Of a stretch of 42,106 nt of DNA, positions 30,340-34,521 are shown piece by piece. Numbering within the stretch: the first letter of the stretch is position 1; each line of letters opens with the position of its first letter. This DNA comes from Candidatus Pacearchaeota archaeon (GTDB taxonomy: Archaea; Nanobdellota; Nanobdellia; Pacearchaeales; GW2011-AR1): positions 1 through 42,106 of the forward strand of contig NYZR01000013.1 in assembly GCA_002687255.1 (NCBI GenBank), read 5' to 3'. The notes beneath the pieces were generated by a model. The model was not told the origin of the DNA. It made no database searches and saw only the letters and a list, made by a program, of their open reading frames with translations. A program made the position numbers and the translations under genes.

Positions 30340-31041
30340 TCATTTTTTCAATGTGTATATCACCCATATTGGAATCTTGGTCTCAGAATACCATTTGAAG
30401 GGTTCATTCCCCGTGGCTAAAGGTTTTCGAGTTTCAACTAGCCGCAACCTTGCCTTTTCGAAGGCCGCTTTGTAATCTTGGTCTGTCCAAATATGGCCGT
30501 AGAGGACAATGTCCGTTCCACGAACAACGGCCTTTCCTTTATCTCCACTTTTCAGATTTTTATTTTCGGGCCAGTCACAAATGAAAGATGCCCAATTATT
30601 CTTGTGAGCCTCTGGTGTCCCATCAACAATTATGATTGCGCCTCCTGGCCGCAACACCCTTTTCATTTCTTTCAAAACTTTTATCATCTCCTGTGATGTG
30701 GAGATCTCTAAGAACACTATGCTGGAGAAGATAAGATCAAAGCTGTTTTCTGGATATGGGAGGATGCCACTCTTGATCTGTTGGTAGGTGCCTTCTGGAT
30801 CTCTCTTTCTTGATTCCATAATCATGTCTTTGCTAATATCCACTCCAACCACATCCAGTCCCTGACTTTTTAGAAACCTCGTAGGTCTTCCCCCTCCACA
30901 ACCATAGTCAAGAGCCGTTTTCCCCCTAACATGTTGCCTAATAAGTTCAGGGATGTCACGGTAAGCCAGCCAGAATGAATCAACAATACCTAGGTCTGCA
31001 TAAGCTTTCCCAAACTTCTCATAATCATTATCCCTTGCCAT
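30340..31041 (-). CDS. class I SAM-dependent methyltransferase
   Basis: ALDYGCGGGRPTRFL (motif I), VVGVDISKDM and LRPGGAIIIV. Confidence 0.8.
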   Translation of the reverse strand: MARDNDYEKFGKAYADLGIVDSFWLAYRDIPELIRQHVRGKTALDYGCGGGRPTRFLKSQGLDVVGVDISKDMIMESRKRDPEGTYQQIKSGILPYPENSFDLIFSSIVFLEISTSQEMIKVLKEMKRVLRPGGAIIIVDGTPEAHKNNWASFICDWPENKNLKSGDKGKAVVRGTDIVLYGHIWTDQDYKAAFEKARLRLVETRKPLATGNEPFKWYSETKIPIWVIYTLKK

Positions 31042-31198
31042 GCTGGAGACAATCTTCCATCATTTAAGAATTTTTACAATGCATTCTCTGTTGATGTAGG
31101 AAGATTTATATAGCCATTTTGTCCGAGAAGAAGGTCTAACTACATCCTTGCTCGCTGGATTTCTTGGCGAGATGAGGCATGCTGTAGGGGATACGAAG

Positions 31199-31819
31199 AT
31201 GAAACTTGATGAAGCATTGAAGGAAATTCGGAAAGGGAAGGAACGTAAGTTCGATCAGTCGGTAGACTTGTTGATTAATCTTCGAGGGGTTGACCTGAAG
31301 AGGGATAATGTTAATGTGGTGGTTACTTTGCCGCATGCTCTCGGAAGTAAGAAAGTATGTGGGTTTTTGACGAAGAAAAGCGATCTTGTTACTTCTGTTC
31401 TTGAGCCTGATTTTCAGGGCTATGCAAAAGATCCGAAGAAGTTGAAGAAGTTGGCTGATGAGTATGACTTCTTTATTGCGGCTGCTCCGTTGATGCCGAA
31501 GGTTGCTACGACGTTTGGTAGAGTGCTGGGGCCTGCAGGGAAGATGCCTTCGCCGCAGTTGGGAATTTTGGCTCCGGAAAGTGATGAGTCGATTCAGAAA
31601 GTGTTGAAGGAGATTGGGAGTTCGGTGAAGTTGCGGGCGAAGGAAACGAGCTTGAAGTTGAGTATTGGGAAATTGAGTATGGAAGACGCTGCGATTTCTG
31701 AGAACCTGCGGGCGATTGTAAAGGGTGTGCTTGGTGTTCTTCCGAGCAATAGAGAGAGTGTGAAGAATGTTCTTGTCAAAACGACGATGGGGAAGCCTGT
31801 CGCCGTGGAGGGTTGGTAA
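31199..31819 (+). CDS. rpl1: ribosomal protein L1
   Basis: MKLDEALKEIRKGKERKFDQSVDLLINLRGVDLKR and the rest are canonical uL1. Confidence 0.9.
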   Translation: MKLDEALKEIRKGKERKFDQSVDLLINLRGVDLKRDNVNVVVTLPHALGSKKVCGFLTKKSDLVTSVLEPDFQGYAKDPKKLKKLADEYDFFIAAAPLMPKVATTFGRVLGPAGKMPSPQLGILAPESDESIQKVLKEIGSSVKLRAKETSLKLSIGKLSMEDAAISENLRAIVKGVLGVLPSNRESVKNVLVKTTMGKPVAVEGW

Positions 31820-31873
31820 TTATGAAAATCAGAGATTTTCAAATGTTCGCAATAGGAGGTATTGCTTCGCACT

Positions 31874-32866
31874 ATGGCTGCTGAAAAGAAGTTAGGGGCT
31901 GCGCAGGTTGCGGCGTGGAAGACTGAGTCGGTGAAGAAGTTGGCGGAGCAGATGAAAGGAGCGAAGACGGTGTTGTTGGCCTCGATTAAGGGGTTGCCGA
32001 GCGGACAGTTCCATGCGATTAAGAAGCAGTTGCGAGGGAAGGCTGAGATTGCTGTGGGGAAGAAGTCTATTGTGTTGAGGGCGTTGGAAGCTACGGAGAA
32101 GGGGGCGCTGCAGAATTTGAAGAAGGAGATTGGAGCGGACATTGCGTTGTTGTTTTCTGATATGGATGCGTTTGCTTTGTCTGGGCTGTTGACCGAGAGT
32201 CAGAGTAAGATGAAGGCTAAGGTTGGAGATATTGCTCCGGAAGATCTGGTTATTGAGCCGGGGCCAACTGACATGTTGCCGGGGCCGGCGATTTCTGAAT
32301 TGGGTGCGGTTGGACTGCAGGTTGCTGTGGAGGATGGGAAGATTGCGATTAAAGCTGCGCATACGGTTGTTAAGGAAGGGGAAGAGATTTCTGCTAATGT
32401 TGCTGATGTTCTTGGGAAGTTGAATATTGAGCCAATGAAAGTTGGGTTCGGCCCTTTGGCTGCTTATGATGCTGAGGCTGATAAGGTGTATGTGGGTATT
32501 CGGATTGATAAGGAAGGTGCTTTGGAAGCTTTGCGAGAGGCTCTTGGGAAGGCTTTAGGGTTTGCTGTTTCTAAGAGGGTTATTAATTCTGGGACTGTGG
32601 GTTACTTTTTGGCGAAGGCGGAGGCTGGGGCTAAGGCGGTTGAGGGGAAGGTGCAGGAAGAGGGTTCTGAGTCTGAGGGGAAGGAAGATAGCTCTAGTGA
32701 ATCTTCTTCGGAAGGGAATAATGATAAGGAAGAACAACCGGGTAGTGAGGAAGGTGCTGGCGGGGATGATGGTGAGAATGGTGGGGATGCTGGTGCTGCT
32801 GAGGCTGATAAGGCTGAGGAGAAGAAGGAAGAATCAGATGAGGGGGGAAAGAAAGATGGCGATTAG
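31874..32866 (+). CDS. rpl10: ribosomal stalk protein P0 (uL10)
   Basis: AGGAGGT Shine-Dalgarno upstream. VAAWKTESVKKLAEQMKGAKTVLLASIKGLPSGQFHAIKKQLRGKA is typical. The acidic tail ends in KKDGD without the usual hydrophobic terminal motif. Confidence 0.9.
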   Translation: MAAEKKLGAAQVAAWKTESVKKLAEQMKGAKTVLLASIKGLPSGQFHAIKKQLRGKAEIAVGKKSIVLRALEATEKGALQNLKKEIGADIALLFSDMDAFALSGLLTESQSKMKAKVGDIAPEDLVIEPGPTDMLPGPAISELGAVGLQVAVEDGKIAIKAAHTVVKEGEEISANVADVLGKLNIEPMKVGFGPLAAYDAEADKVYVGIRIDKEGALEALREALGKALGFAVSKRVINSGTVGYFLAKAEAGAKAVEGKVQEEGSESEGKEDSSSESSSEGNNDKEEQPGSEEGAGGDDGENGGDAGAAEADKAEEKKEESDEGGKKDGD

Positions 32867-33110
32867 TTTTCCTGGGACTAACTATGGACGTTCTGGAAGA
32901 GTTCACCCAGATAGTATTGCTTCAGTTTCTTACCTCACCCTTATGGGGCTACAAGAGAGAGGCAAACTTAGAGAAGGCGTGATGAGGGCAGATGTTGATG
33001 GTTTCGTTGTTGGAGTGACCTATGATGGGAGAATCATTTTTGCTCCTGACGAATTTGAGTATGAATGTGATGGATTTGATGATACAACTACACAAGGGGG
33101 CTCTAGATAA
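32856..33110 (+). CDS. unknown small protein A inserted between rpl10 and rpl12
   Basis: 84 aa. The ATG overlaps the P0 stop (ATGGCGATTAG), with a GAGGGGGG Shine-Dalgarno upstream. No family recognised. Confidence 0.55.
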   Translation: MAISFPGTNYGRSGRVHPDSIASVSYLTLMGLQERGKLREGVMRADVDGFVVGVTYDGRIIFAPDEFEYECDGFDDTTTQGGSR

Positions 33111-33111
33111 A

Positions 33112-33537
33112 ATGAATGTGTTGGGCGGCTTGGTTGCTGCGGAGAGAATGTTGAGAAGGATTAAGGAAGGAGAAAGGAGGCGGGAGGGCAAGATTGTGGA
33201 ACTGGGTGATGGCTTCGACTTAAGCAGTCTTGAACAGGAGGATGTTGTGAGGTTTGGATACGAGGGTTGTGGGGGATTTAAGGTTGTAGAAAGTGCTGAT
33301 GAGAGTATGATTTCTATTTACGGCCCCCTGATCAATAGGCTCAATAGAGCCATAGAGATTAGATCCTGTGCGACCATTGAATCGAGAATCGATAAAACGT
33401 GCCTTATCATGCCTAGAGAGAACCATGAGATACTTAGGAGAGGGGATGAAGGATATGATGAAAAGGCACGAACCCTTGCAGGATTAGGTTTTAGGGAATT
33501 TTCAGATTACATCATTGAAAAGGAGGACGCTAAATAA
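33112..33537 (+). CDS. unknown protein B inserted between rpl10 and rpl12
   Basis: 141 aa. The ATG lies 1 nt after the stop of A, with an AGGGGG Shine-Dalgarno. Its stop overlaps the rpl12 ATG (TAATG). No family recognised. Confidence 0.6.
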   Translation: MNVLGGLVAAERMLRRIKEGERRREGKIVELGDGFDLSSLEQEDVVRFGYEGCGGFKVVESADESMISIYGPLINRLNRAIEIRSCATIESRIDKTCLIMPRENHEILRRGDEGYDEKARTLAGLGFREFSDYIIEKEDAK

Positions 33538-33842
33538 TGGAATATGTTTATGGTGCTTTGCTCTTGCATAAGCTTGGTCAGCCGGTCACTGCGGAGAGTT
33601 TGACGAAAGTCATTTCTGCTGCTGGTGCTGAAGTTGACGAGGCTAAAGTGAAGACACTGATTGCTAGCCTTGAAGGTGTGGACATCGGTGCTGAGCTTGA
33701 GAACGCAAGTGCGGTAGCCGCTGCTCCTGCAGCTGGCGGTGCTGGCGGAGATGCTGGTGCTGCTGAGGCCGATAAGGCTGAGGAGAAGAAGGAAGAAAAG
33801 GCTGAAGAAAGTGCTGCTGGATTAGGCGCCCTCTTCGGTTAA
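33537..33842 (+). CDS. rpl12: ribosomal stalk protein P1 (aL12)
   Basis: MEYVYGALLLHKLGQPVTAESLTKVISAAGAEVDEAKVKTLIASLEGVDI, followed by an acidic tail ending in AAGLGALFG. Confidence 0.9.
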   Translation: MEYVYGALLLHKLGQPVTAESLTKVISAAGAEVDEAKVKTLIASLEGVDIGAELENASAVAAAPAAGGAGGDAGAAEADKAEEKKEEKAEESAAGLGALFG

Positions 33843-33990
33843 CCTTTCTTGATTGGTTACTGAAGGGGCTCTTGTAGCTTCGGTGCTGGTGTAGTTCTAG
33901 GAAGGCTTAAAGATTCTTTCAGAATCTTGAGGCCTTCAAGTTCGATAGAACGTGAAGGTTTATAAGTCTTTGACGAGAGTTCTGTATATC

Positions 33991-34069
33991 GCAATGATGA
34001 ACATTGCGGCACCGAGGAGGCGAGCTCCTCGGACGCACAACATCTCGAACGCATGAACGATGTTGATGT
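33991..34069 (+). promoter_or_regulatory. hairpin-rich leader between the TATA (33959-33966) and tRNA-Ser
   Basis: Three consecutive stem-loops: GCAATG-ATGAA-CATTGC, CCGAGGAG-GCGAG-CTCCTCGG and CAACATC-(14 nt)-GATGTTG. Confidence 0.3.
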
Positions 34070-34152
34070 GCCGGCATTGGGCAGTGGCCGCCCGGCAGGC
34101 TTGAACCCTGCTTTCCATTACGGATATCTCGGTTCGATTCCGAGTGCCGGCG
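34070..34152 (+). tRNA. tRNA-Ser (anticodon UGA), class II with a long variable arm
   Basis: GCCGGCA TT GGGC AGTGGCC GCCC G GCAGG CTTGAAC CCTGC TTTCCATTACGGATAT CTCGG TTCGATT CCGAG TGCCGGC G. 83 nt. Confidence 0.9.
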
Positions 34153-34251
34153 TTCTATGGAAACCAAGGTTTCCCTTAGGAACCCTTCCTTTAAGAGACT
34201 AACAGTTTCCTTTGCTAACCTTCCTTTTAGTTAGTCCGCTACGCTTGGCGT

Positions 34252-34521
34252 TTAACTAAACAAACCCTTCCAGAATGATTCTTTCTTGTTGGTGACGGTG
34301 GTTGCTAGTTCTTCGGGTTCGACGATTTCATAAGTGATTCTTGGTTTGGTTTTTAGGACAGGGGCTTGGTCGGCGAGTTCTTCATCTACTCGTTTGAAGG
34401 CTCGCTCGATTTCTGTTCGGGAGTGACCTTGGTTGAGAAGGGCGACACGGAGAGAGTCTTTGGTGTAGCCTTTTTTGAGGTTCTTTTTTATGTAGACTGC
34501 TAGGTCGGTGAGATAGGTCAT
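34252..34521 (-). CDS. small hypothetical protein (89 aa)
   Basis: ORF with TTTATAAA about 25 nt upstream of its ATG. No family recognised. Confidence 0.5.
   Translation of the reverse strand: MTYLTDLAVYIKKNLKKGYTKDSLRVALLNQGHSRTEIERAFKRVDEELADQAPVLKTKPRITYEIVEPEELATTVTNKKESFWKGLFS

Follow-up and report, generated by a model that had tools for sequence, protein, structure and literature searches.

The ribosomal stalk of archaea, in its canonical form, carries seven factor-binding sites, one of them on aP0, and aP0 normally possesses an aP1-like C-terminal region (PMC7768734). Translational coupling of overlapping genes has been demonstrated by experiment: among the 14 overlapping gene pairs tested in Haloferax volcanii and Escherichia coli, 13 were strictly coupled (Huber et al. 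2019, PMC6728339). Here we analyse a stretch of 42,106 nucleotides (nt) of Candidatus Pacearchaeota archaeon (GenBank assembly GCA_002687255.1, contig NYZR01000013.1, positions 1 to 42,106 of the forward strand), called the window below, in which two open reading frames (ORFs), A and B, lie in the stalk operon between rpl10, encoding P0, and rpl12, encoding P1. A and B are true orphans: they are free of homologues outside a narrow lineage, and the syntenic locus of the sister lineage does not contain them. We think it probable, if well short of certain, that they are young, lineage-restricted ORFs that arose from decayed duplicates of P1 and of the P0 tail, are translated by coupling and are kept open for the sake of P1. 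The locus thus varies two known phenomena, the birth of orphan genes from decayed duplicates and translational coupling.

The anatomy of stops and starts at this locus (ATG…TAG, TAA-A-ATG and TAATG), each after a Shine-Dalgarno (SD)-like motif, is the same as in the coupled overlapping pairs (PMC6728339). However, the cistrons considered here are orphans and not conserved partners, the apparent relay runs between two ribosomal protein genes, and it is known from sequence. Repeated tail sequence and a history of duplication are also found in the stalk genes themselves, as in the eukaryotic P1/P2 paralogues and archaeal aP0 (PMC7768734), and the DNA segment that holds A and B, hereafter the insert, shares in this likeness through R1, which clearly duplicates the P1 tail, through a further copy of the P1 start module and through what appear to be decayed tail remnants. 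Unlike the P1/P2 paralogues, the copies in the insert are not recognisable by profiles, have neither an N-terminal dimerisation signature nor a C-terminal GLGALFG, and occur in one lineage only. A and B also resemble lineage-specific orphan genes of de novo or pseudogene origin, in that they belong to one population, the sister locus is ancestral, their composition is native and related examples evolve fast. They differ in having arisen within an operon of core ribosomal proteins, where both cistron boundaries reuse the start module of a neighbour, and in that the same junction has yielded such ORFs repeatedly in related lineages. Selfish ORFs between conserved genes, such as homing endonuclease genes and toxin-antitoxin cassettes, are similarly strain-variable at a fixed position in a conserved operon, but neither a nuclease nor a toxin domain is found in A and B, which have no other copies and no foreign composition.

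An earlier sequence-only reading of this DNA had placed two ORFs of 84 and 141 amino acids (aa) between the P0 and P1 genes, and their coordinates and the gene order hold, with Pfam confirming the flanking genes (Table 1). Its description of tight coupling is accurate at every junction. The ATG of A (32856) lies upstream of the P0 stop TAG (32864-32866), giving an overlap of 11 nt (ATGGCGATTAG); a single nucleotide separates the A stop TAA (33108-33110) from the ATG of B (33112; TAA-A-ATG); and the B stop TAA (33535-33537) overlaps the P1 ATG at 33537, the two having one common A (TAATG). At all three junctions stop and start are therefore on the same strand and overlap or lie no more than 1-2 nt apart, as in cistrons coupled by termination-reinitiation. 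The same reading credited each ORF with a G-rich SD sequence of its own, and SD-like runs do precede A (GAGGGGGG), B (AAGGGGG) and P1 (AAGGAGG). In the NCBI annotation A and B are CMI48_02000 and CMI48_02005. Other starts are possible for both, as the B frame is already open at 33022 and the NCBI annotation has A beginning at 32838 (90 aa). The acidic tail of P0 terminates early, at …EEKKEESDEGGKKDGD followed by a stop codon, and is without a GLGALFG motif. Note also that the frame of A is open for 98 further codons upstream (32562-33110), through the purine-rich P0 tail, so that ribosomes shifting frame at any point of this tail would make a P0-A fusion.

Both frames are longer than chance readily allows, since in composition-preserving shuffles that of A stayed open in 0.1% of trials and that of B in 0.05%. 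In-frame codon usage, scored at 0.39/0.14 for A and 0.27/0.22 for B, falls inside the range of the 26 real genes of the window, the insert has a guanine-plus-cytosine (GC) content of 0.44-0.45, with GC and codon usage like those of the host, and the predicted proteins are of soluble, acidic composition with aromatic residues. The region is not a misassembly: nine contigs from different samples, assemblers and Tara/ENA/NCBI assemblies are 99.97-100% identical across it, which excludes the assembly artefact considered in the sequence-only reading. Samples with the locus include SAMEA2619974, SAMEA2620106 and SAMEA2620097 of Tara Oceans (runs ERR594345, ERR594346 and ERR594290). We also would like to mention four other contigs (L110-L113) that carry the exact L1 protein of the window and all end in the N-terminal domain of P0 (residues 83-199; ~31874-32470 of the window), which suggests that strains differ around the stalk operon or that coverage is low there.

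The statement that neither ORF belongs to a recognisable family stands after extensive library searches. Compared with ~15 billion sequences, A and B matched no protein family, structure, virus or other protein. Pfam, NCBIfam and PADLOC gave no match at E<=1, so that the P1 family PF00428 is not found in either ORF at this threshold, and Pfam, PHROGs, NCBIfam and PADLOC revealed no toxin, antitoxin, nuclease, integrase, transposase or defence domain; PHROGs returned weak partial matches to families of unknown function only, the best (E=0.002) covering 14 residues. A search of PDB sequences gave nothing below E=0.3. Among 5.8 billion protein clusters A and B match themselves only, and an exhaustive HMMER search of B in 1.84 billion representatives retrieved self-matches plus one spurious repeat protein (P0007), rejected as a homologue of B because the match is inflated by repeats, this being a 10-fold repetitive, junk-like protein with 22 residues matched. 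Viral contigs gave no genuine match to either ORF; one match to A (L104) was spurious, as it lies out of frame within a 934-aa gene on the opposite strand. The insert has no paralogue elsewhere in the window. Single-sequence AlphaFold2 models were of too low confidence to be usable (predicted local distance difference test, pLDDT, 43 for B and 39 for A), and Foldseek of the B model against PDB found no match below E=0.8.

The most informative comparison came from a search with P1, which found a 98% identical P1 on two contigs, L102 (JGI) and L103 (Logan). These are syntenic with the window (FtsZ … L1-P0-P1 … tRNA-Ser … thymidine-phosphorylase-like), and the amino acid identities between the window and L102 are 199/206 for L1, 242/255 for the P0 core and 99/100 for P1. 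On these contigs P0, at 359-361 aa, runs into P1 with a stop that overlaps the ATG of the latter, A and B being absent. According to blastn and MAFFT, DNA homology with L102 stops at ~32791 and restarts at 33516. Three further relatives (L048, L049 and L050; 59-64% P0 identity) also pass directly from P0 to P1, with no insert. Since the sister lineage and these relatives lack it, the parsimonious reading is that the insert was gained in the lineage of the window, and, as judged from the alignments, the segment is derived, lineage-specific and very recent in evolutionary terms.

Even strains that occur together have different junctions. The P1 protein of the window is also encoded on three short contigs (L107-L109), two of the three coming from assemblies that also hold window-type contigs, and these are ~99% identical to the window DNA from 33518 onward; all three break off just upstream of the P1 ribosome-binding site. 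There, L107 (58 nt, reading …RARDLDSVGLISGWVNNTTKKEDAS and a stop) and L108 (23 nt) have a third junction sequence, whereas L109 begins at the homology boundary. The upstream part of this variant was sought via the L1 and P0 clusters, and all those contigs end inside P0. As a separate observation, the sister contigs contain a split Asp/Glu-racemase-like gene (63 + 157 aa, PF01177; L102:5360-6093, L103:2221-2954) between P1 and tRNA-Ser, and the window (33899-33908) is without it, a second indel adjoining the stalk operon. That A and B might be these two genes relocated from downstream of P1 was rejected, as there is no similarity.

Where did the insert come from? Its edges and the A/B boundary contain sequence of the operon itself. 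R1, at the left edge and missing from the P0 tail of L102, matches the tail-coding part of P1, and the lineage-specific sequence starts within it, after a GATGCT (from 32792) that is common to the P0 and P1 tails. At the A/B boundary lies a diverged copy of the module formed by the P0 3' end and the P1 start signals (module copy 1). An ungapped alignment of 33076-33110 with the module of L102 gives 27/35 identical nt, including 13/13 for TTGATGATACAAC (sister, TTGATGATACAAC-C-AAAAAGGAGGACGCTAAATAA; window, TTGATGATACAAC-T-ACACAAGGGGGCTCTAGATAA), and its score of 38 is far above those of 50 other gene-start contexts (mean 14.3, standard deviation 2.5, maximum 20; z=9.5). A therefore ends on ancestral P0 end codons, its last 12 codons reading FDDTTTQGGSR-stop where the sister P0 has VDDTTKKEDAK-stop, and B starts on a copy of the P1 start signal. 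The end of B corresponds to the orthologous module (module copy 2), where homology resumes: its last residues, EKEDAK-stop, correspond to KKEDAK-stop of the sister P0, together with the P1 ribosome-binding site. These boundary duplications are thus shown by alignment.

The bodies of the ORFs have weaker resemblances to P1. Within B, segments 33221-33340 (p=0.0026, z=4.6; 2,682 control windows) and 33440-33515 (p=0.009, z=3.4) resemble the 3' part of P1, each containing a putative P1-tail remnant. A gapped colinear alignment of the whole insert with P1 scores 47.6, as against a mean of 25.7 (standard deviation 6.4, maximum 45.8) for 449 real control segments; the colinear chain tops 449 of 449 controls in one scoring scheme and has p<=0.025 across five schemes. 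That the bodies of A and B would be decayed P1 copies is, on these similarities, moderately supported.

The origin of the boundaries also bears on the proposal, made in the sequence-only reading, of a selfish insertion exploiting a highly expressed operon. The first half of this proposal survives, in that a derived, lineage-specific segment does ride the operon; the word selfish is not supported, as the searches gave neither a domain of a nuclease, an integrase, a toxin or a defence protein nor a copy elsewhere. A foreign two-gene cassette, for example a toxin-antitoxin or mobile ORF pair lodged in the P0 tail, would account for a small ORF followed after 1 nt by one of ~140 aa, for strain-variable presence, and for the duplicated 35-nt module, which could be read as a long target-site duplication. 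However, toxin-antitoxin systems recur as patchy homologous pairs across genomes and mobile elements, and A and B gave self-matches only, with nothing usable in Pfam, PHROGs, NCBIfam, PADLOC or PDB sequences and no homologue in viral contigs or metagenome proteins. The insert has no inverted terminal repeats and no integrase, GC and codon usage are native, and the duplicated module (33076-33110 and 33516-33536) flanks B only. R1 and the internal P1-tail remnants indicate operon-derived material, and because the boundaries copy sequence of the operon itself, local duplication is to be preferred to a foreign element; we regard the cassette as very unlikely.

Local duplication could have proceeded as follows. 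After the split from the sister lineage, a segment of ~0.7 kb would have arisen in the 3', tail-coding end of rpl10, largely as a mosaic of decayed local duplicates made of rpl12 pieces and the P0-end/P1-start module. The repetitive acidic-tail sequence that P0 and P1 share favours recombination of the unequal or illegitimate kind, which has probably duplicated P1 together with its start module. The redundant upstream P1 copy would then have lost its protein function. All cistrons presumably reside on one mRNA and are read by termination-reinitiation, so that a stop stranding ribosomes would cut P1 output; frames would stay open or be rejoined by new starts at the stops. P0 would thereby have been cut short to …KKDGD-stop, with A restarting over the P0 stop and ending on the old P0 end codons, and B beginning on the copy of the P1 start signal and ending on the original P0 end codons that overlap the real P1 start. 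To arrive at A and B, this would have had to happen twice or more, with indels in addition. Because P1 translation would depend on ribosomes delivered from upstream, selection would keep the intervening frames open while their amino acids drift fast, and the outcome would be orphan, fast-evolving, highly expressed ORFs. We infer the duplication mechanism, the actual translation and selection for open frames in place of a protein function; what we observe is the anatomy, the absence in relatives, the lack of homologues, the duplicated boundaries and, as described below, the repeated occurrence of junction ORFs in the clade.

A survey of the rpl10-rpl12 junction in related genomes, which the sequence-only reading had proposed, was run on ~33 lineages of the clade, with P0 proteins 40-64% identical to that of the window. 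Its premise that the two genes are normally contiguous is right for this clade, the P0 stop overlapping the P1 start or sitting within 2 nt of it in most relatives. Besides the window, eight lineages have an ORF between P0 and P1 (Table 1), unannotated or annotated as hypothetical and without a Pfam family. Every complete one starts on or adjoining the P0 stop and ends on or adjoining the P1 start (that of L051 is incomplete), most end in the P0 C-terminal motif of sister lineages (…QLNNPEESA-stop), and the odds of being open by chance are 1e-3 to 1e-6 for each. These ORFs are mutually unrelated, save for L012=L054 and L018~L081, and are scattered over the P0 tree beside lineages that do not have them. 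L012 and L055 differ by a clean ~300-nt indel within the P0 tail, roughly the length of one P1 gene. In three lineages the start of the junction ORF copies the start module of their own P1 (p<0.001 in L012, 0.014 in L016 and 0.03 in L071); that of L071 begins MEY, as does P1, and that of L012 is colinear with its own P1 (p about 0.01). In the pair L018 and L081, with P0 71% identical over 227 aa and P1 92% identical, identity falls to 34% in the junction ORF, which has indels and is nevertheless open; junction ORFs therefore drift very fast with their frames preserved. That the P0-P1 junction has repeatedly given rise to coupled orphan ORFs in this DPANN clade is, in our opinion, a more interesting result than A and B themselves.

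Table 1. Features of the stalk operon region in the window and ORFs at the P0-P1 junction of related lineages.
Feature	Position	Strand	Remarks
rpl1 (L1), first stalk-operon cistron	31199..31819	+	PF00687, E=2e-35
rpl10 (P0), 330 aa	31874..32866	+	PF00466 + PF17777
R1, copy of P1 tail-coding segment 33743-33797, inside P0 tail	32779..32833	+	52/55 nt identical
Lineage-specific segment, ~724 nt	32792..33515	+	replaces 153 nt of acidic P0 tail in L102/L103
ORF A, 84 aa, isoelectric point 4.6	32856..33110	+	start overlapping P0 stop
Module copy 1, diverged P0-3'-end / P1 ribosome-binding-site / stop / ATG module	33076..33114	+	forms A stop + B start
ORF B, 141 aa, isoelectric point 5.1	33112..33537	+	stop overlapping P1 ATG
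P1-tail-like remnant 1 (putative), in B	33280..33329	+	KVVESAD…GPL resembles KAEESAAG…GAL; 19/22 nt against P1 33798-33819
P1-tail-like remnant 2 (putative), near B C-terminus	33457..33488	+	DEKARTLAGLG resembles EEKAEESAAGLG; protein-level p=0.04
Module copy 2, orthologous P1 translation-initiation region (AAAAGGAGGACGCTAAATA-ATG)	33516..33536	+	homology with L102 and L107 resumes
rpl12 (P1), 101 aa	33537..33842	+	PF00428; C-terminal AAGLGALFG intact
tRNA-Ser(UGA)	34069..34153	+	ARAGORN, Rfam; downstream of operon, context and synteny anchor only
L012/L054 junction ORF	L012:4888-5211		107 aa
L013/L058 junction ORF	L013:3427-3606		59 aa
L016 junction ORF	L016:4923-5183		86 aa
L018/L072 junction ORF	L018:2671-2910		79 aa
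L051 junction ORF	L051:1176-1493		>105 aa, contig ends before P1
L065 junction ORF	L065:971-1333		120 aa
L071 junction ORF	L071:3780-3992		70 aa
L081 junction ORF	L081:870-1094		74 aa

The survey also helps to judge whether A and B are translated at all. They could instead form a recently expanded non-coding spacer of pseudogene debris, with inherited frames and with P1 initiating independently on its own SD. The AAGGAGG of P1 is indeed strong; if the 95% identity of R1 dates the event, the insert could be young enough for inherited frames to be open by chance; and L048, the closest lineage of the survey at 64% P0 identity, has a 57-nt untranslated spacer before P1, which means that coupling is not obligatory in the clade. 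Against this spacer speak the odds of ~1e-3 or less for the open frames of A and B, the position of each start at or adjoining the preceding stop with an SD-like run, the single spanning coupled ORF kept in all eight other lineages whose junction DNA measures 170 nt or more, and the L018/L081 ORF that remains open despite its divergence. We therefore consider untranslated debris an improbable explanation.

Several results weigh against the origin by decay of local duplicates under selection for open frames. P1 has a good SD of its own, and its dependence on upstream translation is an assumption. All nine window-type contigs are clonal, with no polymorphism among them from which selection on A or B could be read. 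Hhalign of B against a 36-sequence P1 alignment gave a probability of 0.7%, BLASTP comparisons of the two ORFs with P0 and P1 gave nothing, and a P1 hidden Markov model run on all forward translated frames of the insert scored no better than on controls. Some 250 nt of the insert (32834-32975 and 33341-33450) are without any match, the 3' half of A can be aligned colinearly in two competing ways, and several of the DNA similarities have p values of only 0.02-0.1, chance matches to L1 and P0 being of similar strength. In four other lineages a P1 trace was undetectable.

The factor-binding motif of the stalk deserves a separate comment. GL(G/S)xLFG is kept by P1 but not at the end of P0 in the window (32650-32866) and in most Pacearchaeota/Woesearchaeota-like relatives; among the loci compared (L010-L095 and L102), only L031 and L075 have a P0 that retains it. 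The idea that the insertion severed a P0 ending in GLGALFG was consequently rejected, the sister P0 and most relatives being without the motif anyway.

This brings us to the possibility that A, B or both are functional, fast-evolving accessory proteins of the stalk or GTPase centre, perhaps P1 derivatives that have taken on a new function, are produced in nearly the same amounts as P0 and P1 and bind the stalk or translational GTPases. The gene-like codon usage and soluble, acidic composition with aromatics of both ORFs, their tight coupling within the operon, the presence of junction ORFs in 9 of ~33 clade lineages and the AGLGF stretch of B, which resembles the factor-binding AGLGALFG of P1, would all suit such proteins, and in a clade where P0 is usually without its own factor-binding motif compensation is conceivable. 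However, AGLGF is internal, 16 residues before the end of B, whose C-terminus is EKEDAK; GL(G/S)xLFG is not found at the extreme C-terminus of B, and nothing similar occurs in A. Neither ORF matches PF00428 or the P1-family profile, and the structural models, as mentioned above, are of low confidence. Conservation is zero, A and B being absent from the sister lineage and from the co-occurring strain, and the junction ORFs of the other lineages are, apart from the two related pairs, of independent sequence. The sequence-only reading, which had proposed stalk- or GTPase-centre-associated factors, had itself named such a lack of conservation in related genomes as telling against them, and we regard functional accessory proteins as unlikely. 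The evidence points to locally generated young ORFs in preference to a new ribosome factor or a mobile element.

A bolder version combines both ideas: the P0-P1 junction of Pacearchaeota-like DPANN archaea may be a gene nursery in which rpl12 is repeatedly duplicated in tandem and yields coupled cistrons that cannot be silenced, are expressed at ribosomal-protein level and are free to diverge, some of them, possibly A and B, now being lineage-specific proteins that bind the stalk or translation factors where P0 has lost its factor-binding tail. In this full form we hold the proposal to be speculative and rather unlikely.

As for the surroundings of the operon, the mechanical ORF of L1 starts at TTG 31148, and the ATG at 31199 agrees with the start in the sister lineage. 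An inverted repeat (33901-33937; 17-nt arms, 88% complementary, 3-nt loop) lies 60 nt past the P1 stop, where the window and L102 differ by the indel, and may be a hairpin at the end of the operon transcript. An Rfam scan of 30900-34400 found the tRNA-Ser and no other structured RNA, and no promoter-like or terminator-like signals stand out inside the operon.

If the proposed origin of A and B holds, new protein-coding ORFs can come out of a ribosomal operon that is both core and highly expressed: duplicates of stalk genes would decay, the relay of ribosomes to the last functional copy would keep their frames open and translated, and fast-drifting sequences would thus meet selection while strongly expressed. 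With nine or more lineages of a single DPANN clade, and with the differences between strains, there would be replicate and datable cases of gene birth and of translational coupling. The locus also carries a warning for annotation, as 'hypothetical proteins' in the ribosomal operons of reduced archaea may be relics and not conserved factors.

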